63,256 nucleotides of DNA, taken from positions 1-63,256 of the IMG/VR virus record IMGVR_UViG_3300038621_000255, one strand, 5' to 3'. The position numbers and the translations under genes are program-made. Positions 41,143 through 63,185 of this stretch are shown one piece after another (the stretch's first letter is position 1; every line of letters starts with the position of its first letter). The stretch is from a virus (taxonomy: Duplodnaviria > Caudoviricetes). The notes under the pieces were generated by a model, which ran no database searches, was not told where the DNA came from, and was given only the letters and a program-made list of their open reading frames with translations.

Positions 41143-41629
41143 GGGACTTCGCCTCCTTCGATAAGGATATCATCCCCATTTTAATCAATCCCTCGCCGAT
41201 AAACATATCCCTCGCCACGGCACTTTCCCCACTGTTAAACGGCGTTTCGTAGAAAATTTCCCGAATTCCCGCCGAAATCAATAGTTTCAAACAAGACAAA
41301 CAGGGTTCTAAAGTAACATAGATGCTAGCGCCTGCAGTGGCAATCCCGTGTTTGGCAGCTTGCGCGATCGCATTAGCTTCCGCATGAACCGCACGCGACG
41401 GCAACTCCCTACTACCGGCATCGCAGCTACTCAATCCCGGATAGCAATATCCTTGTGCGATACAGTGCGGCGAACCGCTGGGAGGTCCATTATATCCCGT
41501 TGCCAGTACCTGCCTATCCTTGACAACAACAGCTCCCACAGGAAACGCCAAACAGGTAGAACGGGTAGCCGCCAGTTTCGCTAGCATCAAAAAATATTCA
41601 TCCCAAGTGGGTCGCTGGTAATCAGGCAT
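41099..41629 (-). CDS. dCMP deaminase
   Basis: RPTWDEYF, RSTC, TGYNG, HAEANA, PCLSC. Confidence 0.95.
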   Translation of the reverse strand: MPDYQRPTWDEYFLMLAKLAATRSTCLAFPVGAVVVKDRQVLATGYNGPPSGSPHCIAQGYCYPGLSSCDAGSRELPSRAVHAEANAIAQAAKHGIATAGASIYVTLEPCLSCLKLLISAGIREIFYETPFNSGESAVARDMFIGEGLIKMGMISLSKEAKSLATTSLELDPTSPP

Positions 41630-43100
41630 CTTGCGTATAAGGAATATCGTTCGTCAAACAGTTGTACGCTTTTTGTAGTTCTATACCCAAATATCCTGCA
41701 TGTTCGGCATGGAGAACGGGAGCATCCGCGCAAATATCTCGCATCAAATTCAATGGTTTTTTCCCGCGATAGGTAGCCACCACTTCGCCGCTACCAGGGG
41801 TTAGCCACTGTACGACAATTTGACCGTGTTCTAGTTCGATTTGGAAATTACCAGAGGGATCGTAAAAATCGCGATTCCGGCGTACAATATGGGCATACTG
41901 GTCTTGAATCAAGCGATCGGCATTATCCCAACAATCATCATAGATATGCGCCGACTGACTAACAGTAATTAACGGACCCAACCGCAAATTGTAGAAACTA
42001 CGTTGGTTTATGCGATCGCGAATATGCTTTTGTAACGCTCGCAATCCCATGGCATTCGCCGGCCAAGCCGCAAACATATCGTTGCTGCGTAGCGTCGCCG
42101 TCAGCGATAGTTCGTTGTCTACCACCCGAACCCAAATATGGTTCAAACAGGGACTTCCGCCTTTCTCGTGGTCGCGAACATCCCACAACGACATCACCGC
42201 ACTAGCAGCATCAATCTCACCAATCAGCTTTTCGATAACCTGTTCCACCTGGTCGCGTCCAAACCAAGAACGCAACCGCTGGCCGTACGTATATTTCACC
42301 CCTTCGCGATAGGGAGCATCGTTTAAAATTTGAGGAATGTATTCCTTGATAAAAGCACGGTCCACAGGCAAATAATTGGGTTCGGGAAAATAAAAATCCT
42401 CCGGTTCGTCGGTAATAACCGCCACCAAATCGATCAGTTCCTGCCACTGACCGTCGTAGCCAGTAGGTCGAATGGTTCCGGTAGTTTTGATGCGGTGGAT
42501 AATTTTGACCCAAGTTTCGGCAATAGTTTTGCCTTCAATGCGATGGCCGTAACGCGAACCAGGCAAAACCGTAGGCGTATTTTCCACCAACGGAAACTCT
42601 TGGGGTTCTCCCCACGGTGGCTGCCAATCTTGACTGGCATAGGATTTGGCCAGTTCGCAGGCCCTGTCTTTATCCGTCACCAACTGCCATTCAATGGCAT
42701 CCCGCAATTGCTGCAACACCGAGGCAGGGATTTCTTCGTCGATATATCCCGGTACTGGAGAACGCACCACCCAACAGGAACGACCGGTGTCGCTAACACC
42801 AGCAGTAAATCCATGCTCAAAAAAATCGCGCAGGCATTCGCAAGCTCTGGCGTTTTTGTCTTCTTTGGTAGCGTCGAGAATAACCAAATAGCGTACGTGG
42901 GGATTGGCAATTAAATTGCGAACCAATAAATTAATTCCCCGGGTCGCACTGTACAGCTGTCCAATTGCGGCGTACTCGTAGGGCTGTAGATGCTTGGCTA
43001 CGGTATCTCGCACCGTCCACCCGGTAACGATGGCAGTTTGCCCTGTACCGCAGATGACTTGATTTGGCTTGTATATGGGCTTGTATTTCCAACCTGGCAT
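41622..43100 (-). CDS. thyA: Thymidylate synthase (cyanobacterial multidomain type)
   Basis: YTYGQRL, PCL, RSNDMFAAWPAN, SAHIY; extra N- and C-terminal domains. Confidence 0.88.
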   Translation of the reverse strand: MPGWKYKPIYKPNQVICGTGQTAIVTGWTVRDTVAKHLQPYEYAAIGQLYSATRGINLLVRNLIANPHVRYLVILDATKEDKNARACECLRDFFEHGFTAGVSDTGRSCWVVRSPVPGYIDEEIPASVLQQLRDAIEWQLVTDKDRACELAKSYASQDWQPPWGEPQEFPLVENTPTVLPGSRYGHRIEGKTIAETWVKIIHRIKTTGTIRPTGYDGQWQELIDLVAVITDEPEDFYFPEPNYLPVDRAFIKEYIPQILNDAPYREGVKYTYGQRLRSWFGRDQVEQVIEKLIGEIDAASAVMSLWDVRDHEKGGSPCLNHIWVRVVDNELSLTATLRSNDMFAAWPANAMGLRALQKHIRDRINQRSFYNLRLGPLITVSQSAHIYDDCWDNADRLIQDQYAHIVRRNRDFYDPSGNFQIELEHGQIVVQWLTPGSGEVVATYRGKKPLNLMRDICADAPVLHAEHAGYLGIELQKAYNCLTNDIPYTQDA

Positions 43101-44286: not shown

Positions 44287-44895
44287 ATGACTACAACAAC
44301 AGAACAAACCCAAAACGACTTAGAAATCGCCACTGTTTTTATTAACGGTGAATCCAGCCTGGGGTTCGAAGACGATAACCTTGGATCCGATGCTGTACAG
44401 GCTTCGGCTGCCGAGGTCAATGAGCAACCTGATTGGAAACAAGAAAATCTTGAGCCAGGGGATGTTCTAGATCTCTCTGACGGTCTCGTCAGAGTTGACG
44501 ATCAACTCGACTTTGTAAACCCCGACAAGGAAGACGAACAGCAGGAGCAAGGAGAACAACAGGAGCAAACGTCCACAGAACAAGATACCGTTCAGGAAGA
44601 ACAGCAAGAGCGAAACGACAGTCAAGAAAGCAAGGGTATCAAACAAAAACTTGCCAGCATTCCCCACAAACGGCTAAAAGTAGCTATTTTAGCCTCCGCA
44701 GCTGTTGCGGTTTGGGGGACCGTCTACTCCGTCTTTACAACCCCATTTCCTTCCCTCTTGTTCGATGTCGTGGGGATTGGGTCTGCCATATGGTTCATCT
44801 ATCGGTATCTCTCGACTGCAGAGGGTCGGGAAAATTTGGAAAATGACTTACATCGTATTTGGAAACGAGTCTGGGATTGGGTACTTAACTACTAA
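44287..44895 (+). CDS. CAAD/CurT-like membrane protein with acidic N-terminus
   Basis: P..LFDVVGIGSAIWFIYRYLSTAEGRENL matches CURT1/CAAD pattern ELvGlgY..WF.yRYL....R.eL. Confidence 0.8.
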   Translation: MTTTTEQTQNDLEIATVFINGESSLGFEDDNLGSDAVQASAAEVNEQPDWKQENLEPGDVLDLSDGLVRVDDQLDFVNPDKEDEQQEQGEQQEQTSTEQDTVQEEQQERNDSQESKGIKQKLASIPHKRLKVAILASAAVAVWGTVYSVFTTPFPSLLFDVVGIGSAIWFIYRYLSTAEGRENLENDLHRIWKRVWDWVLNY

Positions 44896-48217: not shown

Positions 48218-48511
48218 TTGGTAAAGAACATGATGAAGTCTCAACCTTACCGCAAACATTGCCCCACCTGCGGTGCCAACCGGGTCACTTACCCTGACGG
48301 CACCTCTAAGATGGAGACCCAATGGTCGCGTGCCAATAATGCAGAACCTATGGATTTAGCCGCTTTTCATACCAAGTGTTGCCGATTTGTGCGGCAACAC
48401 GGCGATTTCTGCATTAATATCCCACCCACAAGGCAGGAATACGACGCCCGATACGACTACGAAGAACAACACCAGTTATTAACCCAGGAAATACAAAACG
48501 CCTTAGATTGA
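48218..48511 (+). CDS. Cys-rich hypothetical protein
   Basis: CPTC and CC..C; start uncertain. Confidence 0.55.
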   Translation: MVKNMMKSQPYRKHCPTCGANRVTYPDGTSKMETQWSRANNAEPMDLAAFHTKCCRFVRQHGDFCINIPPTRQEYDARYDYEEQHQLLTQEIQNALD

Positions 48512-48585
48512 TAGAATTAGGGATAGATAGGAACTTGTTGGGATGGTGTAACACTGCCTTAGCCCCGGTGGGTGGCCGGGGCTTT

Positions 48586-49470
48586 TTAGTAGTTCTGGAC
48601 CAACACTTCGCCAACTTCGCCGCGATCGCTACCCTTAGAATTTATCGACCTGCGTACTTCTAAAGGGTAGATATTGAAATCTTGGTATAGTTCCCTAATC
48701 AAGGGGCAATCCGAGTTTGAGAGTAGGAATTTTGCGCCTTTTCGGTCTATTTCCTGGCAAAACCTGGCAACTTCCCTTTGCATTTCATCGCCCCATTTTT
48801 CGTTGCCTACGTAGGAAGTGTGCGATCCTTCCGTTCGCTTGGGGTAAGGTGGATCTAGGTATACAAAATCCCCACTCGAAACCGATTCTATAATCTCCCT
48901 GAAATCACAGTTCCAGACGGTGCAGTCCTTATGGTTGAGAACTTCAGAGAGAGATAGAATCAAATTTTGATTGTAAAGATTTACCTTTTCGTAGTGTCCC
49001 CATGGGGCATTAAAATTACCTTGCAAATTCTCTCGCCACAACCCATTGAAACAAATACGGTTGAGAAATACCGCACGGACTGCTCTTACAAGTTTGCGGT
49101 CGGAAGGGTGGTTATTGAATAAATCGCGCGTAGAATAGTAAAGGTACTCTTTGAGATCCACCGCGGCATTGTTGTATTTTTTCTCCAATTCTCCCAAGTA
49201 GTGGGCTAATAAATCGGGCTGGTCCCTCACTACCTCTAATACTTCGATTGGTACCCGGTTCGTATCACTCCCCACTCTTTTCCGGTTTGGGAAGTACCTT
49301 GCCATTTCCCAAAATAGTGCCCCACCTCCTAGGAAGGGTTCCCAGTAGGTTTGAAATTCCTTGGGCAAGTGACTCCAAAGGGTGGACAGAATTTGTCTTT
49401 TCCCACCTGCCCACTTCAGAATGGGCTGTGGCTTCGTTTGGTTTCCAATATCTAGCTCTAGTTGCTGCAT
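48586..49470 (-). CDS. dam: Dam-family DNA adenine methyltransferase
   Basis: KWAGGK, EPFLGGG, FNGLWR.N..G.FN.P, DPPY. Confidence 0.92.
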   Translation of the reverse strand: MQQLELDIGNQTKPQPILKWAGGKRQILSTLWSHLPKEFQTYWEPFLGGGALFWEMARYFPNRKRVGSDTNRVPIEVLEVVRDQPDLLAHYLGELEKKYNNAAVDLKEYLYYSTRDLFNNHPSDRKLVRAVRAVFLNRICFNGLWRENLQGNFNAPWGHYEKVNLYNQNLILSLSEVLNHKDCTVWNCDFREIIESVSSGDFVYLDPPYPKRTEGSHTSYVGNEKWGDEMQREVARFCQEIDRKGAKFLLSNSDCPLIRELYQDFNIYPLEVRRSINSKGSDRGEVGEVLVQNY

Positions 49471-49550
49471 TCTATAAAGCCATTTACAATAACCATCAAT
49501 TCTACTATACTAGTTTCTAGTAGGAAAAGCAAACAGTAGGAGGCATTATC

Positions 49551-50042
49551 TTGCTATTTCCATTAGTGGGTATCGACCCGGGCAAGCAGGGGGCGATAGC
49601 GCTTGCAACCTCACCCTATAGGGTGATTATCGCTGATTTCCCTTTACTACAAGGACAGCCCGACCGGGAAAAATTATACTCCTTTTCTGCCCTCGCTCGT
49701 GGTGGAATAGCTTGGATAGAAACCCCGCAGTTTCGCCCAAGCGATATGCGCAGAAACATATTTTCCGCTGGCACTTTCTACGAGTGCTGGCAATTCCCCT
49801 TAATTCTGCATGGATGTTCCATTGCAGAGGTGCCGGCAAGCACTTGGAAGCGAGAAATGGGTCTTTTTGGTACGGGAAAAGATGGGGCGATCGCACTCGC
49901 CAAACAAATCTTTCCCACGGCAAATCCCTATCTGCAAAGAAAAAAAGACCATGACCGTGCAGAAGCTCTATTAATCTTGAGATACGCGCTGATACAGGAA
50001 GGAGGAGAGCTTGGTAAAGAAATCTCTATGGATTTGTATTAG
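49551..50042 (+). CDS. RuvC-like Holliday junction resolvase
   Basis: GIDPG..GAIA, IE, P..WK, HDRAEALLI. Confidence 0.85.
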   Translation: MLFPLVGIDPGKQGAIALATSPYRVIIADFPLLQGQPDREKLYSFSALARGGIAWIETPQFRPSDMRRNIFSAGTFYECWQFPLILHGCSIAEVPASTWKREMGLFGTGKDGAIALAKQIFPTANPYLQRKKDHDRAEALLILRYALIQEGGELGKEISMDLY

Positions 50043-50188
50043 GTTAAGTTTGGGATTCCTTCTGTGCCATCCACAACCGCAATCACCAGATCAAAGCCCA
50101 CCACCCGGATCGGGAAGAGAGGATCGTCAAATGATAACAAGGGTAAACTAAAGAAGATTCTAGCCCTGGTAGCAAGTACCAGGGCTTT

Positions 50189-50569
50189 TTAGTAGGGGTA
50201 GTCGTTCGATTGAAATTCCTTCAACTCTTCAACCGGGAGGTTGAAGAACTTCGCAAGCATCTCTATCTCAGCATCTAGTAGATTTTGCTCCGAAATTTCG
50301 CGGTTACGTATCGCCAGTAATCGCTCTTCGGGGATTCCGGTGTGAGAAGCGATCCTGCGAATTTTCCCATAATTTCTTGGCAGCAAATCTCCTATCTTGC
50401 GGTCACAATCTAAGGGCAATAGCTCTCCGTGTTTCTGATAGTGAATCAAGTCGGCACGCAATAACGCCTCGATTCTTTCGCTTTGAAACTGAGAATCCGG
50501 CAGGGCTAGCTGGTGATATTTCCTGAGCAGGGAGGGAAGGGCAATATTGATTCGGTGAGAATAATCCAA
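50189..50569 (-). CDS. Repressor-like HTH protein
   Basis: IASHTGIPEERL..LAKFFNLPVEEL; divergent from 50771 operon. Confidence 0.55.
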   Translation of the reverse strand: MDYSHRINIALPSLLRKYHQLALPDSQFQSERIEALLRADLIHYQKHGELLPLDCDRKIGDLLPRNYGKIRRIASHTGIPEERLLAIRNREISEQNLLDAEIEMLAKFFNLPVEELKEFQSNDYPY

Positions 50570-50662
50570 AGGGTTTTCTAGAGCGCTTCAATCGCCTATT
50601 CTAGCGCCTTGCGTACCCTTTCTGTAAAATTATAGAGATGTTATGTCTTTGAAGGCTTGACA

Positions 50663-50972
50663 GGTTACTAAGGTTACAGGTAACCTAAAAAGGTAACCGT
50701 AAGAAATGCAGAGGTAACTCAAGGTAACTTACGGTAACCTTAAGTAACTATTGGAAAAGGAGAGTAACTGATGGATAGGATTCAGGATATGCAAGATTTT
50801 CAACAAATTAAGGATAATCCAGGTAACCCCTGGGTAACCGGCAGGGAAACCGATTCAGGTAACGAACATGTAACCCCATACGTAACCTCTGAAGGTTACC
50901 AACGTAACCAAGATGAGGTTACGGATACAGAAGAAACAAAAGAAACCAAGGAAGAGGGAGAAAACGTAACCT
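50663..50972. repeat. GTAAC/GTTAC iteron cluster over promoter and 5' end of HTH gene
   Basis: About 18 copies in both orientations within ~310 bp. Confidence 0.85.
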
Positions 50973-51589
50973 CTGATGGTAGGGATGAATTTGAACCTAC
51001 CGAGCCAATCACCCAAAAAGAACTGGCCCAGAAATTAGGAGTCAAGCGCCCCTATGTGGGGAAAATCCTAGGAGAATTGAAGAAGTATTTTCCCGAAAAT
51101 GAACTCTACGAGGGGCGTAAGCTATCTGTATTCGCCCAAGAACAGATCCTAGATTACAGATCCCTAGGGGCTAGCGCCTATCGCAAAGAGATGGAAAAAG
51201 CATCTAACAATGACAGTGATGCCGGAGGTGCTATCGAATTGCAAAAACCAGAAATGCAGAAACCGAATATTCCTAACGTAGAGCCGGATATCCTACCCAA
51301 ACAAAACTGGAATGCGGAAAAGATTGTAGATTGCTTCAGCCGCGCCCAGCTGGCAAAACAACAAGGGGCAAACGCACTCCAAGGTGCAATTGACAGCAAG
51401 GTTTCCACCCAAAGAAACTGGCAGACTTTCCAAGAAACAGAATTACGAGATACTTTCGCCCAAGGATGGGAACAGGGAGCAAGGAAAGCCCAAGCATACG
51501 CAGCGGGTGAAGAAGCTGCCTTCCAACAGTTCCTTCAGCAGATGGGGAAGTCATTTCAAAACGAAAATTCCCAATCGGAATCGGAATAG
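50771..51589 (+). CDS. HTH DNA-binding protein
   Basis: ITQKELAQKLGVKRPYV. Confidence 0.75.
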   Translation: MDRIQDMQDFQQIKDNPGNPWVTGRETDSGNEHVTPYVTSEGYQRNQDEVTDTEETKETKEEGENVTSDGRDEFEPTEPITQKELAQKLGVKRPYVGKILGELKKYFPENELYEGRKLSVFAQEQILDYRSLGASAYRKEMEKASNNDSDAGGAIELQKPEMQKPNIPNVEPDILPKQNWNAEKIVDCFSRAQLAKQQGANALQGAIDSKVSTQRNWQTFQETELRDTFAQGWEQGARKAQAYAAGEEAAFQQFLQQMGKSFQNENSQSESE

Positions 51590-52032
51590 TGTTGACTGCC
51601 CTGGCAATTGCCAACCTTTCTGCGCTTGCGGAATATCTTGGTAAATACGAACAGAAGCGCGACGCGGCTTTGGCAAGTCAAACTGCACAATCCCGCTACG
51701 AGAATGGCTGCGTATTTGTAAAGGCGATCGCATCCGACGGTAAACCAGCATCGCTAATCCCCAACACCCCCGTTATTGATAGGAGTAGTGCAGGGTTTTT
51801 CCCAGCCGGGACGACGGTATGCGATATTTATGGCAACACTGGGCGGATCCAGGTAAAAGAACTCGAATACCGCTACCTCTCCCCAAACGGGCGTTTTCAA
51901 TATCCCAAAGGGGCAAAAATCCCGGTGATTGACCCGGCTTCCTTGGCTTATACAGGAACTCCCCCACACAAAAAAATACCCGATGGCGCCCCCATTGGGT
52001 ATATAGGACGTATCTCTAATATCCAAAGATAA
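51589..52032 (+). CDS. Hypothetical (possibly exported) protein
   Basis: Coupled ORF; hydrophobic N-terminus, Cys pair. Confidence 0.6.
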   Translation: MLTALAIANLSALAEYLGKYEQKRDAALASQTAQSRYENGCVFVKAIASDGKPASLIPNTPVIDRSSAGFFPAGTTVCDIYGNTGRIQVKELEYRYLSPNGRFQYPKGAKIPVIDPASLAYTGTPPHKKIPDGAPIGYIGRISNIQR

Positions 52033-52086
52033 TTTCAAACCATCACGGACTCAACCCGTGATGGTTTACTAGGAGGTGAGAACAAT

Positions 52087-52626
52087 ATGCAAGTAGTCGA
52101 TGCCGAGCGTGTTGGTTCTGGTGAAAGCAAGGCCAGCACGTCTGCAAATAATAGCACCCAAAGTGCGCTTAAAAGTTTCTTCAAGAATAAACGCACTATC
52201 AAAGCCGTCCTCATTGTGAGCCTATCCTTTTTACTAGGTTTGGTTTGGGTCTTGAATTGTCAACCATACTTAAGTGCTGCTGAAAATCTATGGGGTATAG
52301 CAGCCTCAAGAAATACGAACAGCGGCGTGATAGGAAACCTTGTCTTTGCTTCAGTTATAACCCAATGGTTGTGGACACTCTTTGGAATCTTCCTGTGCGT
52401 TGGGTTGCAGTTGCTCGAATTCCTGCCAGCTCTAAATTGGAATATTAGCAGGAAAAAGGCACGCGTAGCTCGTATGGCTAGCTATGTGGTTGACCTAATT
52501 GTGCTTTGGTCGGTCTACCCAATTTCTAGCCTTCCCCTCAATTGGTGGCACTTGATTCTAATGGTTTTAGCTTTGATAGCTGTTGAGATGGTGTTTTATC
52601 CCCTTGCACTTATTAAAGATTCTTAA
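52087..52626 (+). CDS. Multi-pass membrane protein
   Basis: About four hydrophobic segments; AGGAGG RBS. Confidence 0.75.
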   Translation: MQVVDAERVGSGESKASTSANNSTQSALKSFFKNKRTIKAVLIVSLSFLLGLVWVLNCQPYLSAAENLWGIAASRNTNSGVIGNLVFASVITQWLWTLFGIFLCVGLQLLEFLPALNWNISRKKARVARMASYVVDLIVLWSVYPISSLPLNWWHLILMVLALIAVEMVFYPLALIKDS

Positions 52627-52636
52627 GGAGATTCTC

Positions 52637-53932
52637 ATGGATTTATTTAGGCCTAACGACTGGCGCTCTCACGAGTGGAAATCGGCAATCGAACCCCACA
52701 CAAACCCTTTCAAGGCACTAGCGGTTTTTGTTCTGGGTATCGTTTTAGGGTTTTTCGTAAACTTCCTACTTGGTCCCTTATTTGGGATTGTGGTAGGAGG
52801 TAGCCTTGTTGCTTGGGCATTCGTTATTGAGTGGAAACTTGGGAGTGCCGAAGATGGTGTATTAACGGACGGGGTTATCGCCCCCTTTATCAAGCACAAA
52901 GCCGATTTCCATCAATACCTCAGAGGTGTAGGAAAAGAGCGCGTGAGGGCTGAGATAGAACAGGCATTGGAAGACGGGCACGAAATATCCCCTTTTGCCC
53001 AAAATTGGTATAACGCAGATAAGAAGGGTAAACCTACCATTTCGGAAACTTCCCCTCTGCAACGTTTGAGGGAAGTTCCGGAAAAACCAACAGAGAAGCG
53101 TTCGTCGCCCACTCCACGACAACCCAAGGAAAATACCGGACCGCAAAAAGAGGAGGAGGACAACAACGGCAAGGAAGAGAGAGAGGAAGAAGAAGACATA
53201 AATCCTTTTTGGGAAATTCCCTACGCGCAATTGGTTATTTTGGCAGGGATGCAAGGATCGGGAAAGACAACCACCTTGGCGGCAATTATAGAGCAGAAAC
53301 TTAAACAGCAGGCTTTTGTTTTGGTTTGCGATCCCTTCTACTCAGCTGGTAAGCACTTCGGCCTTCCCGTAGTTGGGCGTGACCCAGAAAACCGGTTTAC
53401 AGATATATCAGCCGCCATGGAGTGGTTTGGGCAAATTGTCGAAGGAAGGTTGGTTAAGCAGGCAAAGTTTGAGAACTACGATCCCGTCGCCGACGATGTT
53501 CATATCTGCTTGGTTGTGGACGAGTTTACAAACCTTAGCAATAGTTTGGAGCCAACTGTATTGGCAAAACTCTGGGACGACAGTTTACAAACGTTGCGAA
53601 GATTGAATTTAAGCGTAATCCTTGCCACCCACAACCTACGCATCCCCGGTCTTGGCGGACAAAAGGCAGTTGCCTCAAAAACCGAGGCAATTTCCAACCA
53701 ATCAATGCAGTTCAAGTTACAAACAAAAATCAACAGAAATCGACAACCAGGGGAATCACCAAAAATCCCAGCAGGTAAGGCTAAGTTTAAACGCGAAGGG
53801 GAAGATGATTTCTACGAAGTAAAAGTACCAGAGGATTTTAAACCCTCCAATTTGAATTTTGATTTCCGGCACCTAACTGGGAAAGAAAAACACCCCAATT
53901 GGCGTAAAGAAGTAGGCTTAGAAAATCAGTAA
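52637..53932 (+). CDS. Membrane-anchored FtsK/HerA-like P-loop ATPase
   Basis: Two N-terminal TM segments, GMQGSGKT, LVVDEF, ILATH. Confidence 0.75.
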   Translation: MDLFRPNDWRSHEWKSAIEPHTNPFKALAVFVLGIVLGFFVNFLLGPLFGIVVGGSLVAWAFVIEWKLGSAEDGVLTDGVIAPFIKHKADFHQYLRGVGKERVRAEIEQALEDGHEISPFAQNWYNADKKGKPTISETSPLQRLREVPEKPTEKRSSPTPRQPKENTGPQKEEEDNNGKEEREEEEDINPFWEIPYAQLVILAGMQGSGKTTTLAAIIEQKLKQQAFVLVCDPFYSAGKHFGLPVVGRDPENRFTDISAAMEWFGQIVEGRLVKQAKFENYDPVADDVHICLVVDEFTNLSNSLEPTVLAKLWDDSLQTLRRLNLSVILATHNLRIPGLGGQKAVASKTEAISNQSMQFKLQTKINRNRQPGESPKIPAGKAKFKREGEDDFYEVKVPEDFKPSNLNFDFRHLTGKEKHPNWRKEVGLENQ

Positions 53933-53944
53933 AAGGAGTACAAG

Positions 53945-54202
53945 ATGGCATTACAACGCACCTTGAAACAAAAGCGCGATCTAGTAATCGGTGGTATACT
54001 CCGAACCTTACGATATGAGGGATTTACAACCAACCAAAAAATACTAGATCGATTAATAAAGAAGATCCAACCAAAGGACTTTTCCAAGGATAAATGGGTT
54101 GGCATAGAGACAAAGAAAAAGGGAAGAAAAAACTACCTGGTAATTAATTTCTTTAAAGGGGATGAAGTAATTAAATCCCAAAAAATGGAGATTCGCAAAT
54201 AA
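53945..54202 (+). CDS. Basic hypothetical protein
   Basis: AAGGAG RBS. Confidence 0.6.
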   Translation: MALQRTLKQKRDLVIGGILRTLRYEGFTTNQKILDRLIKKIQPKDFSKDKWVGIETKKKGRKNYLVINFFKGDEVIKSQKMEIRK

Positions 54203-54651
54203 TGGCTAGTGGTAAAATACACGAAAGGATTAATCTCTTTGGGTCAATAATAGCAGTAAGTGCCGTTGGTGCGATCGCCAAAGAACCTATCTTAGGATTG
54301 CTAGTGGGTGCCGGAACCCTAGTTGGCACCTACCTCCTTAGTCCCGATCTAGATTGCCGGGGCGCTTTTCACGCAAAATCCTGGTGGCGTTGGCATCGGA
54401 TCGGGTTGGGGTGGTATTGGTCGCTCTACGCCCAAACAATTCCCCACCACCGGCACTGGCTCAGTCACTCGATTGTAATAAGTACAGCGTATCGGGTTCT
54501 ATGGTTGGCGATTCCCCTGGCTGCAATACTATATGCTCTGCCCTTAGAAATTGACCCCAACGCAATCATCACCACCCATTGGAGATTCTTCGCTGCTTTC
54601 TACGGTGGGTTAGAATTATCTACAATCTTGCACTTACTGATGGACCTCTAA
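54202..54651 (+). CDS. DUF2227-like metal-binding membrane protein
   Basis: MASGKIH, LSPDLD, HR..LSH, H..D. Confidence 0.8.
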   Translation: MASGKIHERINLFGSIIAVSAVGAIAKEPILGLLVGAGTLVGTYLLSPDLDCRGAFHAKSWWRWHRIGLGWYWSLYAQTIPHHRHWLSHSIVISTAYRVLWLAIPLAAILYALPLEIDPNAIITTHWRFFAAFYGGLELSTILHLLMDL

Positions 54652-54773
54652 AAGTAGCAACCCCGTCCACGGACGGGGTTGCTTACTAAATCTTTTTAGC
54701 AATGACGGTAGCGACCCGAAGCAATAAGGCTGCTAGGAAACAACCCAATGCGATCACCACATCGCCACAAGGA

Positions 54774-54995
54774 TTAAAATCGTGAGTACATTCTTAGGTA
54801 TCTTTCCGCCAGGCTGTACCACCCTGGTAATGATATATATGGGGCTATATCATTTTGGAAGTGTCGGGGATTATCCTCTTCAAGGATGTCTTGAAGGATA
54901 AATACTAATTTGTTTACCCTTTCCTCGGGGTAAAGGGTGGAATCCATCAAAAGGGATTCCGTTGCGCTTTTAATTTGTTTTGCGGTTTCCTGCAT
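54774..54995 (-). CDS. Hypothetical protein
   Basis: GGAGGCAA RBS, preceded by pseudoknot copy 3. Confidence 0.65.
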   Translation of the reverse strand: MQETAKQIKSATESLLMDSTLYPEERVNKLVFILQDILEEDNPRHFQNDIAPYISLPGWYSLAERYLRMYSRF

Positions 54996-55021
54996 TCACT
55001 TGCCTCCAATTTATTCTTGTG

Positions 55022-55049
55022 TAGGCACTTTAACGACTTGCCCAGGTCG
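55022..55049 (-). ncRNA. Putative pseudoknot, copy 3
   Basis: Minus strand CGACCTGGGCAAGTCGTTAAAGTGCCTA. Confidence 0.6.
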
Positions 55050-55062
55050 TGGCAGGAAGTTA

Positions 55063-55368
55063 TTATCTAACCCAGTAGTACTCCCACCCATTTTGGGAAT
55101 AGGCGTATTTCTTATCTAGTTCCACTATTAGAGCATTTTCCGCTCTAATGTGCAGGATATCGCGGCCCTGTACCTTATGGGCTTCTTGGTAAAAGCCTTT
55201 TTCGGAAGGGGTGCCCTTTTGTAAGATATACGTCAAAATCTCCCACTCGCCTCTTATACTCTTACGGAACTCCGGGTGGCGGAACAACAGTTCCGGGTTG
55301 TTGTTCACTCGGCGAAGGTGCTGTAACAAGGCTTTCTTAATTTGCTCAGTTGATTGGTCGGTCTTCAT
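55063..55368 (-). CDS. Hypothetical early protein
   Basis: CCGGAGGCAA RBS, TTGACA promoter at 55430-55435. Confidence 0.7.
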   Translation of the reverse strand: MKTDQSTEQIKKALLQHLRRVNNNPELLFRHPEFRKSIRGEWEILTYILQKGTPSEKGFYQEAHKVQGRDILHIRAENALIVELDKKYAYSQNGWEYYWVR

Positions 55369-55490
55369 GGTTTTTGCCTCCGGTGTTACTTAATTAACTA
55401 TTCTTACTATGGCACACCCTTTTGGGAACTGTCAACCAGTTTGTAGAATTATTCCCTAAAATCCTATAAAACAACCATCTAGACTGGTTC

Positions 55491-57047
55491 CTAGAATTTT
55501 TCCTTGGCTTGTTTTCTGGCGGCGAGGGTGGTAGATTTAACCGGTGTGCGCATTGACCGTAGAGGAATTCGGCGAGTTTCTGCCAAAAACTGGGACAAAG
55601 CATCAACCTGATCGTCGTGCAAACTCTTTGGAAAATTCGCTAGTTCCTGCTCGAATTCCTCCAACCAGGGTGCTTGCTTGGGTAACCAAACGCGACCTTG
55701 TTCGATAAACCCAGCTTGAATTGCCAACCGGGATACCTTGTCTTTGGTGGGCTTAGAGGGTACTAGAGTGGCGCGTACTTGGGATGCGCATTCCTGCTGC
55801 AAGGCATACCCGGTAGCGGCCTGCTCGCAAATTATCGTGGCTGGTTCCCACTCTCTAGCCTTGCTAAGGAAATAGCGTTTCCCCTCTGGATAGTCGAGGC
55901 GCTTGCGAAATGCCTCCAATAAGTAAAAATGCCCTTGGGATACACCGAAGGTCAAGCAAACCCAAGGATCGTTGATTTCCTGCCCCTTGTGGGCAGTGTC
56001 CCAACTCTGCACCACTGTATCCCAATGTTTGGGCAAATCCTTACTTGTATACCGGGGGAAATCACCAATATTTATCAAGCCGCCGCCCAGGGGCATGGGG
56101 GATTGCTGGTGTCGGGCAGCAAACAACCAGTTACCTAGCACCAATCGGGCTTCTTGCTCTTCCTCTTCTCCGAAGCGCTCGGGGTGTAGGTAGTCGCCGG
56201 GGGTGCGGATAGTGCGATCGCCCGATAAGGGATATTCGATAGCTTCTTCCTCTTGGGCAACCGTGGGCAGTTTTAGCCAATTGTATCGATCCCTTGCATT
56301 TTCCAGGATCCAGCCCGATATATCGCCAACGTGCGTGCGCTGTTGCACTACCAGGATTGGCGCTTGTGGGTGGTTTTTCCGGGTGGCAGAAAAATCTTGA
56401 AATCTATGCAACGCTCGGTGGCGTTGCACGCCGCTTTCCGGTCGGGGTGAGTCCGGATCGTCAGCTTCGGGGTTATTTGGATCGTCGAAAATCAGTAGAT
56501 CCCCTCCAAGCCCCGTGACTGAGCCATCTAGACCCCGCGAAACCATAGCGCCTTGGTATTCGTTCTCGAACTCGCTAATCCGGTTGGCAGCTTGCACCAA
56601 CCGCAGCCCCTGCGACCAAAACCCCTGGTAGAATTCACTCTGGATTAATTTCCGTCGCTGTTGGTTATGACCGTTGGCGAGTGAGGCGGAATAAGATAGA
56701 CACAAAAACCGCAGGGAAGGGTAACGCAACCAGCACCAACAAGGGAAAACAATCGAAACCAAGGTGGTTTTTAAATGCCTTGGGGGCATATTTAAGAGGA
56801 GATTGCGGTGGCGTTCGTCCAATTCCCCTTCCAATAGCGCTTCCAAATATTCGCAGATTAAATCTAGAAACCAACCCCACTGTAGCTCCTGCCCGGGGGT
56901 GAGAACTTCCCAAGATTGCGCCAGAAATTGGGATAGGGAGGGTATAGGTTTGGGCGTACGTTGGATTGATTTCTTATGCTTTTTTGCTTTCTTTGCCCGC
57001 TTGCGGTTTAATTCTGTTCCCCCATAAGCAAGGCGACGGTCAAGCAT
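55491..57047 (-). CDS. Terminase large subunit
   Basis: NMPPRHLKT, LLIFDDP, QSWDTA, HDDQVDA. Confidence 0.93.
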   Translation of the reverse strand: MLDRRLAYGGTELNRKRAKKAKKHKKSIQRTPKPIPSLSQFLAQSWEVLTPGQELQWGWFLDLICEYLEALLEGELDERHRNLLLNMPPRHLKTTLVSIVFPCWCWLRYPSLRFLCLSYSASLANGHNQQRRKLIQSEFYQGFWSQGLRLVQAANRISEFENEYQGAMVSRGLDGSVTGLGGDLLIFDDPNNPEADDPDSPRPESGVQRHRALHRFQDFSATRKNHPQAPILVVQQRTHVGDISGWILENARDRYNWLKLPTVAQEEEAIEYPLSGDRTIRTPGDYLHPERFGEEEEQEARLVLGNWLFAARHQQSPMPLGGGLINIGDFPRYTSKDLPKHWDTVVQSWDTAHKGQEINDPWVCLTFGVSQGHFYLLEAFRKRLDYPEGKRYFLSKAREWEPATIICEQAATGYALQQECASQVRATLVPSKPTKDKVSRLAIQAGFIEQGRVWLPKQAPWLEEFEQELANFPKSLHDDQVDALSQFLAETRRIPLRSMRTPVKSTTLAARKQAKEKF

Positions 57048-57672
57048 CTTCTTCTTCGTTGGTCGTAGCTTCCGTGTCTATATCCCCATCCTCTCCTTCT
57101 TCTGGTGGTTTCGCTGGTTTTAATTCTTCTTGCTCGTAGGGGTCTAGGATCTCATAGCCCATCGCCTCTAGGGCACTACTTGCCCACTGGGCGTTGAGGA
57201 GATGGTGCAGCCCTTGTGATTGTCGTTCGCCTTGGATTGCGGTGTGCAAACTCTGCACTGCAATGTCAAACTTTTTCCAGTCACGAGTTGGAATGGCTTT
57301 TACAGGGTTTTCGCCTCTCTCTTTTGCTTCTTTTTGTAACTCAATAAAGCTATCGATGCAGCCTTCTGCGGCTTGCCTTGCTTTCTTGTAGCTATTTTGG
57401 TGAGCATCCGCCAGCTCTTCTGCTTTTTTAACTAGGGCTTGCGACCTTTGTTTCTTGAGCTTTTTAATTTCTTCAATCCAGAGGCGATAGAGTTCCGGAT
57501 CCTGTCCCAATTTTTGCCGCCAGCTATTTATTGAAGAGCGTGCAACCCCGAACTGGTGGGAAGTCTGGGCATCGCTCTGGAATTCGGCAAAAGCTAATAT
57601 TGTCGCCTTACCCTGTGGCGACGGACTGCGACCGTTACTGCTTTGGCTGTCGCCGTTTCTTCCTTTCTTCAA
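57040..57672 (-). CDS. Terminase small subunit
   Basis: N-terminal HTH (FGVARSSINSW), directly upstream of large subunit. Confidence 0.7.
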   Translation of the reverse strand: MKKGRNGDSQSSNGRSPSPQGKATILAFAEFQSDAQTSHQFGVARSSINSWRQKLGQDPELYRLWIEEIKKLKKQRSQALVKKAEELADAHQNSYKKARQAAEGCIDSFIELQKEAKERGENPVKAIPTRDWKKFDIAVQSLHTAIQGERQSQGLHHLLNAQWASSALEAMGYEILDPYEQEELKPAKPPEEGEDGDIDTEATTNEEEDA

Positions 57673-57863: not shown

Positions 57864-57949
57864 TTGGGCAAACCATAATTCCTTCCCCCTAAAGTAGCAG
57901 AAAATCAGACCGACCGCAACATGTAATCATCGGTAGGTACCAAGCAACC

Positions 57950-58530
57950 ACCATAATATTTTTATTACAGGGGTACGAAAACGCTGTAATCTTCTGTGTG
58001 TGGAGATTGTAGGTATATTATGGGGGCTGTAATAAAAACTGTAATAAAAACGCAGCATAAAAATATTACAGTGCGCGATCGCAACCAGAATATTTTTATT
58101 ACAGAAGGTGCGGAAACGCTGTAATCTCCTATGCGACTGAATTCTAGGTAAATTATAAGGTCGTGATGGCATGGACTGTAATAAAAATAATATTACACCG
58201 TAATAAAACGCTGTAATCTCCTGTGTGCGGAGATTACAGGCTCGTAACGAGGTCGTAATAAAATAGCGAGCGCAGGGGCATAATTACGCAGCTGTAATAA
58301 TAACCAAAACCCGCTTTGTGTGGAGATTACAGCACTTATAATATCCAAAATGTAACACACTATACTTACCCCTTTTATAATCGACCTCAAATCCCCTGTG
58401 TGTGGAGATTACAGCAAATATTATAGGGTATACGCACAGATCTAGTAATACCGTAATAAATGCTGTAATCTCCTGTGCGACTGGATTTGAGGTCGATTTT
58501 TAGAGTTGGTTGTATAACGTGTTACATTTT
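57950..58530. repeat. ATTAC-rich locus D with ~185-bp imperfect palindrome (58347-58530)
   Basis: CTGTAATCTCC-N7-GGAGATTACAG boxes; nested arms AAAATGTAACAC/GTGTTACATTTT and AATCGACCTCAAATCC/GGATTTGAGGTCGATT. Confidence 0.9.
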
Positions 58531-58548
58531 GCCCTTTGTTACCCTCAT

Positions 58549-58757
58549 GTTCTTTGTCGGTTAGGCGGAGGATCGCCAAAGGGTCAAAAGTTGGCATGCC
58601 TTACCCACCTTAAACCCAGTCACAGCAAGGGTTTTAGCGATTGATAGTCTACGAGGGGGTGAAGACCCATAATCGCTGAGATGCCTTAACCATAGGGGTT
58701 TCAGCCGCCAATTTAATGACCGAGTTAGTACATTTTTCGATCCTCTGGTCACCCGAC
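58549..58757 (+). repeat. ~210-bp cassette repeat, copy 1
   Basis: Near-identical to 59461-59669 and 60549-60753. Confidence 0.93.
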
Positions 58758-58880
58758 TGCCGCTAAGTAACTTGTCAGTTAGGATCTGGGAAAAATTCTA
58801 CAAAACCCTTGACAAAACCCTATAGATTTGCTATTATAATAATTGAAGAGGTTAAAGAGCAAACCAGGAGGCAACAAACC

Positions 58881-60865: not shown

Positions 60866-61054
60866 ATGCAAAACAACACCAACCAAACCCCATTCCCAGA
60901 TCTCTCCCTGGAGGATCTGGAAGCATCAGAGCAAATGCTCTGGAATTCCTTAAACAAAATCGATGCCGCCGCCGGCATTGATAAAAGTCACACTTACGAA
61001 ACCTGGAAGGAAATCAATAATATTTCCCAGGATATCAGAATCGAGGATCTATAG
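60866..61054 (+). CDS. Small acidic cassette protein
   Basis: Promoter at 60804. Confidence 0.6.
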   Translation: MQNNTNQTPFPDLSLEDLEASEQMLWNSLNKIDAAAGIDKSHTYETWKEINNISQDIRIEDL

Positions 61055-61137
61055 TGGGACAAGGGGGTCCGCACCGATTGTTCGGAATTTTCTCAAATCG
61101 AAAATCAAGCCGTATCTCAGTCGGCAGGAGCTACAAT

Positions 61138-61647
61138 ATGAGTGAAGAAATGTCACCTCAAGAGCTACAAGATGCCATCCAACAAGTAGTTGAGGCAGAA
61201 ACGGAGAATTTTGCCGAGTTAGCTCAAATAGCAGGATTAGATATCAAACAGGACTTTGCTGAAGCGGATTTAAATGGGATTAATTTAAGCGGTGCAAATC
61301 TTAGCAAGGCTAATCTGAGTGGTGCCAATTTGAGTGAATCCTATCTAATTGAAACTAACCCTTCCCAAACAAAGAGCAAACCAATTAGTCAGAGAGGCGA
61401 AATTATGAAAACTATTCAACTAAGAAACGAGATTCAGGTTCAGCCAAATGTTGATAGAGGGCAAATTGTGAGCGCTCTTAACAATGAAGTAGGCAACAAT
61501 GGTTGGTTCGAGGCAATTGAGAATTACTTTATTGAATATCCAGATATTGAAATAATCTTGGAACTGGATAGCACCCAAACATGGGTTCCTATGCCGGAGA
61601 ATTGGGGTGATATTTTCTTCGATGAGAGCTTAAATCAATGGGTATAG
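61138..61647 (+). CDS. Protein with truncated pentapeptide repeat, probably chimeric
   Basis: ADLNG INLSG ANLSK ANLSG ANLSE; GGAG RBS before ATG 61138. Confidence 0.65.
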   Translation: MSEEMSPQELQDAIQQVVEAETENFAELAQIAGLDIKQDFAEADLNGINLSGANLSKANLSGANLSESYLIETNPSQTKSKPISQRGEIMKTIQLRNEIQVQPNVDRGQIVSALNNEVGNNGWFEAIENYFIEYPDIEIILELDSTQTWVPMPENWGDIFFDESLNQWV

Positions 61648-61714: not shown

Positions 61715-62950
61715 ATGCTAGCCCAACAACAAAAACAAGAATTTCCCACCCAGGCGACAGTCGCCAATCCGGTTTTTTACCGTACCTATAGCCGCCGCCA
61801 AGGCAATACCCACCGTGAGACTTGGCAGCAGGTGTGCGATCGCACAATTAACGGTTTGGTAAAACTCGGCAAGCTCAGCGACAAAGAAGCCAACCTTGTT
61901 CGCCAAAAATTAGAAAATTTCCAATCCCTCCCCTCCGGTCGTTGGTTGTGGGTCGGTGGCACCAAGTGGGTAGAGCAGCCGGAAAATTACCCCGGTGCTT
62001 ACAACTGCACTAGCACTAATGTGAGCGACTGGAGAGCCTTTGGGTTAATGATGAACCTGGCGATGCAGGGGTGTGGCACCGGTGCTAACTTAGAACCCCA
62101 GCACATCAATCAACTACCAACCATCTGCAATTACCTCCAAGTGGATGTTATGGGTGAGTTTGGTTCTGTTCCCAAGGAAAACCGGTGCGAGCAGACGCAG
62201 GTAGATCGCACCGGTGCCAATAGTTTCCAATTAACTGTTGGCGATTCAAGGCAAGGTTGGGTAGATGCATACACTTGGATTTTGGAAATATCATCGAATT
62301 CTGACCACGCCGGTTCCTTGGGATTTCCCGGTGAGGTAAGAGTAGAGGTAGATATCAGCCACGTTCGTCCCGCTGGTCAACCCCTGAAAGGATTTGGTGG
62401 CGTTGCCAATCCCACCAAGCTCCCCGGTCTGTTTACCCGCTGCGCAGATATTTTGAATGGTGCCGTAGGTAGGAAGTTGAACGAGCAAGAGTGCTGTTTG
62501 TTGATCGATGAGGCTGCTATTGTAGTTGTGGCAGGAAATATTCGTCGTACAGCGGGCATTCGTCAATTCCCTGCCAACTCCCCTCTGTACAAGATGAACT
62601 TGTGGCAACAAGGGGAAGATGGCAACTGGCGGATCGATCCCCAGCGAGATGCCCTGCGTATGGCGAACCACACCAGAGTTTACCATGGCAAGCCCAGTCG
62701 GGAAGGATGCATCGATGCGGTACGCAAGCAATTTTATTCTGGGGAAGGTGCCATTCAGTATGCACCAGAAGCGATCGCCCGCAGTAACGCGGATATTCTC
62801 GATCGACCAGAAATCAAACGAGAATTCTTAGAAATCTATAATTCTTTGGGCGTGGGAGAAGCCAAAAACTGGTTGCGGACCAACTATCCGCAGATGTCAG
62901 ATCGCGAAATCGAGCATCGCCTGCAGCGATATGGTCTCAACCCTTGCGGT
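61715..62950 (+). CDS. nrdJ: Class II ribonucleotide reductase, exon 1
   Basis: RTYSR, PSGRWLW, YNC, VAGNIRR, GLNPCG. Confidence 0.95.
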
Positions 62951-63185
62951 ATCCTTTAATTTTGCCGCCCCTGGCAGCAATGTCAGGTGCCAAAGTGGGT
63001 GAATTGCCGGAACCCCTAACGCAAAAGGCGAGGGCAATCGGCAGCCAAGCTAGCCGGGGCTTCGGTCGGCTAGAAGGTTCAGAGACTAGAGGGTGAGTCC
63101 CAACAATAATCCCTCCACGAGCGCCCACTATCCCGAACGGGGATGAAGAGATAGTCCAATCCTGTAGGAAACTACAGATGTGATG
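62951..63185 (+). ncRNA. Group I intron (235 nt, no ORF)
   Basis: P AATTGCCGGAAC, Q AATCGGCAGC, R TCAGAGACTA (63079), S AAGAGATAGTCC (63146); U before and G at end; removal restores NPCG-EII. Confidence 0.93.

Follow-up and report, generated by a model that had tools for sequence, protein, structure and literature searches.

The IMG/VR virus record IMGVR_UViG_3300038621_000255, a sequence of the linear class that is 63,256 bp long and is referred to below as the window (it is estimated to be 83% complete, with 17% of the genome lying outside it), contains a compact string of genes in which a putative membrane-anchored ATPase, here termed g5, follows a polytopic membrane protein (g4), two further genes (g2 and g3) and a dense array of short DNA repeats. 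A sequence-only reading of this DNA had described the interval from 50189 to 54651 as a plasmid-like DNA-translocation operon carried by a tailed phage, and the gene string that it named is indeed present there in the list of open reading frames (ORFs). The analysis reported here defines a narrower unit, consisting of the four-gene cassette g2-g5 (50771-53932) and the GGTAAC array at its head; its new elements are the ATPase family, a membrane protein conserved as its partner, the repeat array, and a connection with a backbone operon of Nostocales plasmids. The features of the locus, in window coordinates, are the following.

50189-50569, - strand: g1, 126 residues, possible Cro/CI-type DNA-binding protein (HTH_26, E 0.03, residues 66-120)
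50664-50970 (307 bp): array of 18 GTAAC/GTTAC sites, mostly GGTAAC(C), spanning the region upstream of g2 and about the first 200 nt of g2
50771-51589, + strand: g2, 272 residues, acidic (isoelectric point, pI, 4.7), with a weak helix-turn-helix (HTH) match at residues 78-105; AAGGAG 9 nt upstream of its ATG
51589-52032, + strand: g3, 147 residues, basic (pI 9.4), family-less; overlap of 1 nt between its start and the end of g2
52037-52067, + strand: perfect 12-bp hairpin in the g3-g4 spacer, with no U-run after it on the + strand
52087-52626, + strand: g4, 179 residues, polytopic membrane protein; AGGAGG 8 nt upstream of its ATG
52637-53932, + strand: g5, 431-residue membrane-anchored FtsK/TcpA-like P-loop ATPase (ORF open from TTG 52583)
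53945-54202, + strand: g6, 85 residues, basic (pI 10.4), dispensable in that a natural variant lacks it
54202-54651, + strand: g7, DUF2227 membrane protein (Pfam E 1.9e-19, above cut-off)

Genes g2 to g7 form a single string on the + strand (50771-54651), from which g1 diverges. The spacers within it are short, with 54 nt between g3 and g4, 10 nt between g4 and the ATPase gene and 12 nt between the latter and g6, while g6 and g7 overlap by 1 nt; an AAGGAG or AGGAGG motif is found 6-9 nt before the ATG of g2, of g4 and of the ATPase gene. A hairpin with a T-run (50162-50186) closes the RuvC-like gene that lies upstream of the string. The hairpin in the g3-g4 spacer has a minimum free energy of -19.4 kcal/mol (z -3.2, with 0 of 200 shuffled sequences folding as well) and was scored as terminator-like by a terminator scan on the - strand only; it could serve in the processing or stability of the RNA, or be a palindrome to which a protein binds.

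The repeat array and the extent of the unit

The sequence-only reading had named short cis repeats as a property of Streptomyces plasmids only, and the phage sequence proves to possess an array of its own. Its 18 sites compare with an expectation of 0.58 per 340 bp from window-wide frequencies (Poisson 5e-21), with a maximum of 6 sites in 200 shuffles of the window, and with 4 sites at the best position elsewhere; of the 36 GGTAAC/GTTACC hexamers in the whole window, nine fall within 50679-50900. The sites are mostly spaced by 9-14 or 20-25 nt, corresponding to about one or two helical turns, and nine of them lie upstream of the g2 ATG and nine within the first 200 nt of that gene. Those in the coding part are distributed over two reading frames (five in frame 0 and four in frame 1), which argues that the array is a DNA signal laid over the acidic, low-complexity N-terminus of g2, and not the by-product of a peptide repeat. 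A TTGACA hexamer (50657-50662) abuts the first site, where a promoter scan called no full sigma-70-type promoter. The presence of a centromere-like repeat array that adjoins the start of an operon corresponds to the arrangement found in the ParMRC and ParABS partition systems.

The array would presumably be bound by a protein encoded beside it. The best candidate for that role is g2, because three Pfam HTH models, all of them sub-threshold, match it at residues 78-105; the earlier description of g2 as an HTH protein survives in this weakened form, with three models that co-locate and none that reaches its cut-off. A word-index search of 5.8 billion proteins recovered only g2 itself. A second candidate binder is g1, through its HTH_26 match, and searches of Pfam (at E 0.01), PHROGs, NCBIfam and PADLOC yielded no match for it; of the divergent repressor that had been placed at this position, the divergent - strand gene stands, and its identity as a repressor comes down to the HTH_26 match. 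The label of exported-type protein that had been given to g3 is weakly supported at best: its N-terminus is mildly hydrophobic, contains no 19-residue stretch that reaches 1.6 on the Kyte-Doolittle scale, and lacks a basic n-region; the protein displays no transmembrane-like segment and no family match in Pfam, PHROGs, NCBIfam or PADLOC. Sequence searches of the PDB found no relative of g1, g2 or g3.

The extent of the unit is indicated by strain variation. Contigs of four other sequencing runs were compared with the window over 48500-57100, a comparison that takes in the longest of 216 pieces only and in which, since metagenome contigs can mix strains, the pattern of divergence serves as an indication only. 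The X4 pieces that cover the cassette differ from the window at 15 of 1091 positions (50553-51643) and at 20 of 1605 (52339-53943), whereas X4 pieces from the flanks (Dam, g1, g7 and TerL, the terminase large subunit) differ at 50 of 591, 30 of 359 (the g1 piece, 50178-50536), 23 of 328 (the g7 piece, 54111-54438), 28 of 375 and 43 of 587. The same contrast is found for X5, with 4 of 579, 34 of 2111 and 3 of 439 differences in the cassette, and 30 of 276, 10 of 325, 17 of 294 and 62 of 717 in the flanks; over both, divergence from the window amounts to 0.7-1.6% for the array and g2-g5 and to 3-11% for the flanks. Such a low-divergence block suggests that the cassette was recently exchanged between co-occurring phage lineages. 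In addition, an X3 contig (depth 3.05) joins position 53907 to position 54202 via 14 other letters, which establishes that a variant without g6 exists, and X5 displays a matching loose end at 53907.

The low-divergence block and the g6-less variant together point to the array plus g2-g5 as the functional unit, and the interval 50189-54651 was accordingly drawn too wide, with g6 absent from a natural variant and g1 and g7 outside the block. The two genes that follow the ATPase had otherwise been correctly characterised: g6 is basic, as had been said, without a family match in Pfam, PHROGs or NCBIfam, and the match of g7 to DUF2227 lies above the Pfam cut-off. DUF2227 is a family widespread on chromosomes, present in 4 of 14 control genomes, that of Synechococcus elongatus among them, and tblastn found no match to g7 in the phage or plasmid collections described below; g7 is probably a host-type accessory gene outside the conserved block, and a role for g6 or g7 in the cassette is weakly supported or unverified.

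The ATPase and its membrane partner

Translation of g5 most likely starts at ATG 52637 instead of TTG 52583, because all four of its homologues begin there and AAGGAG lies 6 nt upstream. The protein displays the core of an ASCE (additional strand, catalytic glutamate) P-loop ATPase, with a Walker A motif (GMQGSGKT), a Walker B motif (VVDEF, containing the D-E pair) and a conserved arginine; among 80 aligned relatives G207, K210, E296 and R321 are invariant and H332 is present in at least 90%, and R321 may act as an arginine finger. Its N-terminus contains a strongly hydrophobic segment (residues 27-45), and the structural model has a pair of helices there (24-45 and 47-78) that is followed by the ATPase domain, in an arrangement by which both ends of the helical hairpin would face the cytoplasm. 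Of the 67 family members in which Walker A can be recognised, 54 have a hydrophobic segment on its N-terminal side, and membrane anchoring is, on that count, a trait of the family.

The AlphaFold model of g5, built from the 80-sequence alignment, has a mean predicted local distance difference test (pLDDT) score of 84, and every 10-residue block between 191 and 430 averages at least 93. When the model was compared (with VIA-align) against one representative per PDB cluster, the best matches were TcpA of the Clostridium perfringens plasmid pCW3 (6o1x; Z 16.5, root-mean-square deviation 3.5, 202 residues aligned, 16% identity) and FtsK (2ius; Z 15.4, root-mean-square deviation 3.5, 211 aligned), followed by EccC (Z 14.4-14.3), DndH (13.1), EssC (12.5), TrwB (12.1), VirB4 (12.0) and HerA (11.9); RecA-type folds start near Z 11, below the motors of the FtsK/HerA superfamily. 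The top Foldseek match was FtsK bound to double-stranded DNA (E 6.3e-6). At the level of the predicted structure, g5 is thereby shown to be an intact P-loop ATPase of the FtsK/HerA superfamily, with a single ATPase domain in its 431 residues and with a fold that is closest to the double-stranded DNA pumps FtsK and TcpA. Its earlier description as a membrane-anchored FtsK/HerA-like ATPase is upheld by the hydrophobic segment, the helix pair and these fold matches, and an assignment to some unrelated family, which had been named as the outcome that would overturn the description, is not what the fold comparison found.

The same relationship is barely visible to family models. Neither FtsK_SpoIIIE (PF01580), DUF87 (PF01935) nor TrwB of Pfam matches g5 at the gathering score, and the Pfam hits that were obtained, to AAA_22 (E 7e-5), SRP54 and AAA_19, all lie below cut-off; NCBIfam returned far-sub-threshold matches only (VirB4_plasma, for one, scored 24 bits where the cut-off is 590), and PDB sequence searches with both g5 profiles returned hits to the P-loop only. 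Among the 80 relatives there are 23 weak hits to DUF87 (best E 9e-7), three to AAA_10 and two to TrwB_AAD_bind.

The gene directly upstream encodes a protein with at least three hydrophobic segments (residues 38-56, 85-116 and 146-174), and the multi-pass membrane protein that had been recognised in g4 is thus confirmed. The four homologues of g4 are 97, 80, 79 and 62% identical to it, as compared with 99, 65, 63 and 42% for the four homologues of the ATPase, and by this comparison g4 is the best conserved gene of the cassette. The 80% homologue of g4 and the 65% homologue of the ATPase are each located on a Joint Genome Institute contig of 12,934 bp, which is most simply the same contig, and sequence comparison in this way shows g4 to be a co-conserved partner of the ATPase. 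No family match for g4 was found in Pfam or NCBIfam, and the leads from the Atlas were all sub-threshold (score at most 0.85).

When g4 was folded jointly with the membrane part of g5, the median score was 0.39 (0.39, 0.60 and 0.01 in individual runs) and the best control reached 0.01; at least 56% of contacts are common to the runs, with a partner pLDDT of at least 49. The mark applied to such scores is reached by 58 of 80 solved complexes and by 2 of 110 mismatched pairs, and the range up to 0.60 holds 7 of the 80 solved complexes together with both of the mismatches that passed. The joint fold gives weak support for the pairing of the two proteins.

Nostocales plasmids and the surrounding phage genome

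While a word-index search identified four close relatives of g5, an exhaustive profile search recovered 266 proteins at E <=0.001, of which 84 at E <=1e-10 and six at E <=1e-30. The nearest Atlas clusters are unnamed and mostly from Cyanobacteriota, and g5 belongs, as judged by profile similarity, to an unnamed and mostly cyanobacterial ATPase family that occurs on plasmids and chromosomes of Nostocales; the family is not confined to plasmids, because one Atlas cluster includes proteins encoded on contigs as long as 4.8 and 8.6 Mb. A collection of 72,556 plasmids was searched with tblastn. With g5 itself as query, a single plasmid was found, from Calothrix PCC 7716 (31.7% identity over 198 residues, E 1e-15); with a typical family member as query, 39 plasmids were found (Nostoc 27, Tolypothrix 5, Microchaete 3, Calothrix 2, Scytonema 1 and Kovacikia 1), and with the protein of plasmid pCC7120delta as query, 46 (Nostoc 29, Tolypothrix 7, Calothrix 6, Microchaete 3 and Scytonema 1). 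All of these host genera are filamentous, and all 46 plasmids found with the pCC7120delta query belong to Nostocales.

Corresponding tblastn searches of 50,697 phage records, with g5 and family-member queries, found the ATPase family in none of them, nor did the DNA or the proteins of the cassette match any of these records. The family was not confirmed on any further viral contig in two pattern scans of IMG/VR, and pattern scans based on the alignment of close homologues confirmed no relative in viral, genome or metagenome contigs; a scan based on the wider alignment yielded, among the matches listed, one Bacillota locus through the P-loop pattern, which was discarded as irrelevant. The term 'plasmid-like', as applied to the cassette by the sequence-only reading, is borne out by this distribution over 39 and 46 plasmids of filamentous cyanobacteria and 0 of 50,697 phage records.

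A survey of the neighbourhood in cyanobacterial plasmids, which had been proposed as a check, found that the ATPase gene ends an operon headed by ParM and is directly preceded by the gene for a protein of about 185 residues. In the four plasmid loci with a visible upstream part (L004 3475-8987, L005 3368-9071, L008 8194-14029 and L010 4236-10026), the ATPase (575-613 residues) is encoded by the last gene of a same-strand string, in the order ParM/StbA, three to four tiny ORFs, a protein of about 131-147 residues, one of about 201-238 residues, one of 179-192 residues, and the ATPase; in a fifth locus only the last two genes are visible, at the start of the record. The gene for the 179-192-residue protein lies directly upstream of that for the ATPase and overlaps its start codon in five of five loci, and the protein displays two to three hydrophobic segments in the two loci that were scored. 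A replication gene, CyRepA1, adjoins the string in two of the loci, and two contain a divergent ParG gene; the ParG-ParM spacers of two plasmids carry short repeated words, as would be expected for centromere or operator regions. All genes of the operon except that for ParM are annotated as hypothetical, and this backbone operon of Nostocales plasmids appears to be uncharacterised. Mobility typing classed 25 of the 39 plasmids found with the one query as mobilizable, and 30 of the 46 found with the pCC7120delta query, the other 16 being non-mobilizable, which implies that the ATPase needs no relaxase on the same replicon.

The g4-g5 pair of the phage matches the plasmid pair in gene position and character. 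Comparison with the operons of pCC7120delta, pNPM7, pNPUN05, Tolypothrix PCC 7712 unnamed7 and pCENA543a extends that likeness to an ATPase of the same family (by profile), to a protein of about 185 residues before it, and to short repeats at the head of the operon beside a divergent small DNA-binding gene. The phage, unlike these plasmids, has no ParM, its partner genes lack detectable homology to those of the plasmids, and its ATPase has 431 residues as against 575-619; pairwise similarity between g5 and these particular ATPases is marginal (E 0.016-0.041), and the nearest plasmid protein, at 31.7% identity, comes from a different locus, in Calothrix.

The remainder of the window encodes a contractile-tailed virion (that of a myovirus from the microbial mats of a tidal flat), with genes for capsid, sheath, tape measure, baseplate and portal, together with the terminase. 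The main features outside the cassette are as follows.

7727-8677: major head protein
10928-12625: sheath
14038-18864: tape measure
29.8-35 kb: baseplate genes
38559-40202: portal
44287-44895: CAAD-domain protein, 202 residues (E 1.8e-9), directly upstream of the clamp loader; unusual for a phage
55491-57047, - strand: TerL (phrog_38, E 4.3e-85; Terminase_6C, E 4.8e-11)
57040-57672: presumed small terminase gene

The separate terminase that had been reported is thus present, and because TerL is separately encoded, the ATPase is not the packaging enzyme, as had also been concluded. The best TerL match in the 50,697 phage records is about 32% identical, which places the phage in an undescribed lineage; its two nearest TerL relatives in IMG/VR (43 and 38% identity) have no cassette gene within 10 kb. 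The window also encodes a replication set (sliding clamp, SNF2-type helicase, family A polymerase, clamp loader, RuvC-like resolvase and Dam methylase) and a nucleotide set (dCMP deaminase, a thymidylate-synthase-like protein and class II ribonucleotide reductase), and the cassette lies at the end of the replication cluster, of which the clamp loader, Dam and RuvC-like resolvase occupy 44.9-50.0 kb. The CAAD domain is a membrane anchor of cyanobacterial aminoacyl-tRNA synthetases, and the gene that carries it points to a cyanobacterial host. Near-identical DNA was found in nine listed sequencing runs, each of which is labelled as a tidal flat metagenome.

That the contig might be a chimera of phage and plasmid was considered and set aside, as X3 read depth is even over the cassette and its flanks (6.1-11.7). 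An X6 contig of 291 nt, with 0 differences, bridges g1, the array and the start of g2, and further contigs bridge g5-g6-g7 and join two - strand ORFs to TerL; the interval 54738-54856 is spanned by none of the Logan contigs listed.

Several observations on other parts of the window may be recorded here. A gene at 29231-29788 (- strand) has a weak match to cobalamin adenosyltransferase (E 2.3e-5), and the class II ribonucleotide reductase encoded at 61715-62959 (+ strand) is B12-dependent, so that the phage may provide this enzyme plus activation of its cofactor. Adjoining the dCMP deaminase gene, 41622-43100 (- strand) encodes a protein of 492 residues with a thymidylate-synthase-like core and a C-terminal PterinBD-DUF4346 domain, which may relate to the synthesis of a modified pyrimidine. 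Upstream of the presumed small terminase gene, about 0.95 kb (57864-58808) contains no ORF of at least 100 residues and is a candidate pac/cos or regulatory region, and a pentapeptide-repeat protein (E 3.9e-10) is encoded at 61054-61647.

Proposed function and competing explanations

The explanation preferred here, to which a probability of roughly 0.4 is given, is that the cassette was taken up from the pool of mobile-element genes in filamentous cyanobacteria and handles phage DNA at the membrane. The g5 protein would form a ring motor at the cytoplasmic membrane together with g4; g2 would coat the GGTAAC array, autoregulating (repressing) its own operon; and the coated array would mark the phage's own DNA for the motor, in the manner of the clt repeats for TraB or of KOPS for FtsK. 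The motor would then move or hold non-encapsidated phage DNA at or across the membrane, most likely to partition phage DNA, replicating or episomal, when a cell of a filamentous host divides into two daughters and, less likely, to pass DNA into a neighbouring cell. The virion-independent transfer, intra-filament spread or segregation that the sequence-only reading had suggested would be plausible tasks for such a motor. The combination of site, adaptor and NTPase that such a scheme invokes would be the logic common to partition systems and to TraB with clt.

Several known systems resemble parts of this arrangement. TcpA has N-terminal membrane helices, one FtsK-like ATPase domain and no gamma domain, and the plan of N-terminal transmembrane helices followed by a cytoplasmic ATPase is one that g5 shares with the coupling proteins TcpA, VirD4 and TrwB; it differs from TcpA in that the two are only 16% identical and that no Tcp partners, relaxase or origin of transfer (oriT) were found in the phage window. 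The TraB protein of Streptomyces plasmids has a C-terminal winged-helix domain that reads 8-bp repeats in clt, and the TraB/SpdB2/TraR/clt system follows the logic proposed here for the cassette, with a membrane motor, a polytopic, pore-type partner, a DNA-binding regulator, short cis repeats and a multicellular filamentous host. For the plasmid pSVH1, one account describes how the FtsK-like TraB, the pore-forming SpdB2 and the regulator TraR spread plasmid DNA through the mycelium (PMC4447253); TraB binds clt, and the clt locus of pIJ101 contains 5-bp direct repeats, according to a second account, which also cites the plasmid-phage pZL12 of Streptomyces as requiring a tra gene for conjugal transfer (PMC3583192). 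Membership in the TraB/Spd system, the parallel on which the sequence-only reading had drawn, does not hold: g5 lacks a C-terminal DNA-recognition domain, and its partner genes g2, g3 and g4 show no sequence relation to any known family. The phage array, moreover, lies at the 5' end of the operon and is of unrelated sequence, and the apparent host is a cyanobacterium.

FtsK-like genes are also present in other tailed phages of filamentous, multicellular hosts. The Streptomyces phages Mandalore, Naboo and Geonosis possess one besides the terminase, and the papers concerned give its function as unknown, suggest a role 'during replication' (10.1101/2024.02.16.580700, PMC11536984), and describe no membrane partner or cis array; no sequence match to g5 from such genes was found in the phage collection. 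A 'DNA translocase FTSK' is listed in a cyanophage gene table (PMC11356776). In the Nodularia phage vB_NspS-kac65v161 (MK605243 87825-89963; L020 7826-9964), the 712-residue gp140 carries a P-loop as well as hydrophobic segments near its N-terminus, and comparison of the g5 model with BFVD retrieved it by fold (Foldseek E 9.4e-6 over 376 columns, root-mean-square deviation 22 over this long alignment). It was rejected as a sequence relative of g5, having no sequence or profile similarity to it beyond the P-loop, and differs from it in a degenerate Walker B, an extra C-terminal region and the lack of a Pfam family. The gp140 gene is the last in a run of small hypothetical genes located next to genes for helicases, and the host is one of the filamentous Nostocales; gp140 may represent an independent second example among phages of filamentous cyanobacteria.

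A number of results weigh against the preferred explanation. With respect to the motor, the protein exporters EccC and EssC score nearly as high as the DNA pumps (Z 14.4-12.5), and g5 ends about 30 residues past the ATPase fold in the model, without a C-terminal domain resembling FtsK gamma or the winged HTH domain of TraB; DNA as the cargo, and the direction of its movement, are guesses. With respect to the array, the three HTH models that match g2 (HTH_Crp_2, HTH_3 and MarR_2, E 0.002-0.004) are each below the Pfam cut-off, and because g2 has no relatives its link to the array is one of position only. With respect to the plasmid operon, neither hhalign (probability 0.3%) nor BLAST relates g4 to the membrane proteins of the plasmids, and when every cassette protein was compared by BLAST with three plasmid loci, the ATPase was the only one to find a match; even between two Nostoc plasmids, recognisable similarity is limited to ParM, the ATPase and one or two of the small ORFs, and fast divergence is a fair explanation for the missing homology of the partners, not a demonstration. 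With respect to the phage, the large replication and nucleotide-metabolism set is typical of virulent phages and leaves an episomal stage unsupported, and neither integrase nor any other lysogeny gene, nor, unlike in ParMRC and ParABS, a ParM or ParA NTPase, was found in the cassette or among the scanned ORFs of the window (most non-overlapped ORFs of at least 100 residues in this 83%-complete genome). The filamentous host is itself an idea, based on the CAAD-domain gene, the plasmid hosts of the ATPase family and the tidal-flat origin.

Among the competing explanations, the one that survives best, unlikely as it is judged to be, treats the array as the phage replication origin, as a plain operator, or as both, with g2 as initiator or autoregulator and with the ATPase and g4 performing a separate job, such as tethering replication to the membrane. 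The iterons within lambda O or upstream of P1 repA are a precedent for origin arrays at initiator genes, and the phage array overlaps both the upstream region and the 5' part of g2, in a cassette that ends the replication cluster and in a window where no other replication initiator or origin was recognised. The repeats, however, have a core of 5-7 bp that recurs at about one helical turn, a pattern that resembles centromere or coating-operator arrays more than iterons of 17-22 bp; g2 matched no replication-initiator family, and g2-g5 travel as one low-divergence block.

It is rather improbable that the cassette acts on proteins or on incoming DNA, as a minimal export motor of the EssC/EccC type or as a membrane complex for superinfection exclusion. 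Domains of EccC, EccCb1 and EssC match g5 at Z 14.4-12.3, small unassigned proteins are encoded alongside (g3, g6 and, on the - strand, the two ORFs of 54774-55368), and in the closest of the plasmid loci the membrane protein encoded ahead of the ATPase has a sub-threshold match to SieB (E 0.0095). EssC and EccC contain several tandem FtsK-like domains, with FHA in EssC, whereas g5 has a single ATPase domain and no FHA or tandem domains; family scans detected neither a WXG100-like protein nor any other substrate family, DNA pumps take the first two places among the fold matches of g5, and an export or exclusion complex would leave the dense cis array without explanation.

A more far-reaching version of the preferred explanation, and a long shot, holds that the array, g2, g4 and g5 are a sequence-addressed pump of the plasmid type for double-stranded DNA, captured by a tailed phage of a filamentous, mat-forming cyanobacterium, which would pass naked phage genomes from cell to cell through the septa along the trichome, or into a touching filament, without a virion.

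It is very doubtful that g5 is a coupling protein of the TcpA type that docks phage DNA onto a conjugation channel (of the MPF_C type) of the host or of a plasmid, so that the phage would be mobilised like a plasmid. Its best fold match is indeed TcpA, with the same layout, most of the family plasmids (25 of 39 and 30 of 46) were typed as mobilizable, and on pNPUN05 genes for MobC and a relaxase lie 3.3 kb downstream of the ATPase; conjugative plasmids of the MPF_C type occur in Nostocales (PMC8600333). The scanned ORFs of the window contain no relaxase family, however, and no recognisable oriT was found in the window, 17% of the genome being outside it; 16 of 46 plasmids with the ATPase are non-mobilizable, and on plasmids the ATPase gene is tied to ParM and not to a relaxase.

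Equally hard to credit is a HerA-type system of defence or counter-defence, carried as a moron, of which the ATPase would be part: the PADLOC model mad8 matches g5 (E 1.3e-9, residues 178-334) and DndH and HerA defence-complex structures are among its fold matches (Z 13.1-10.1), but the mad8 match is confined to the shared ATPase core, Pfam and PADLOC found no nuclease, methylase or other defence partner in the operon, and on plasmids the family sits in a Rep/ParM backbone. Membrane anchoring and a polytopic partner are not known as features of HerA-type defence systems. MAD7-MAD8 is described as a module of the MADS defence system that pairs an ATPase with a nuclease (PMC13662399).

Among the papers listed by searches of open-access full text, none described such a cassette in a cyanophage or a function for the plasmid operon. 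Should the motor of the preferred explanation move no DNA at all, the cassette would still define a new and uncharacterised branch of FtsK/HerA ATPases that lies outside all Pfam models. The conserved membrane partner, the clear candidate cis site and the many plasmid relatives in tractable strains of Nostoc and Anabaena render the proposal testable. If naked genomes did pass along the trichome, the cassette would be a cyanobacterial counterpart of TraB/Spd spreading in the mycelium of Streptomyces, and the small Nostocales plasmids with the same ATPase family would spread by a relaxase-independent route for double-stranded DNA. If the motor moves DNA, a function would be assigned to the backbone operon of 46 Nostocales plasmids in the collection that was searched, and the phage genome would have a capsid-independent route inside a multicellular bacterium.

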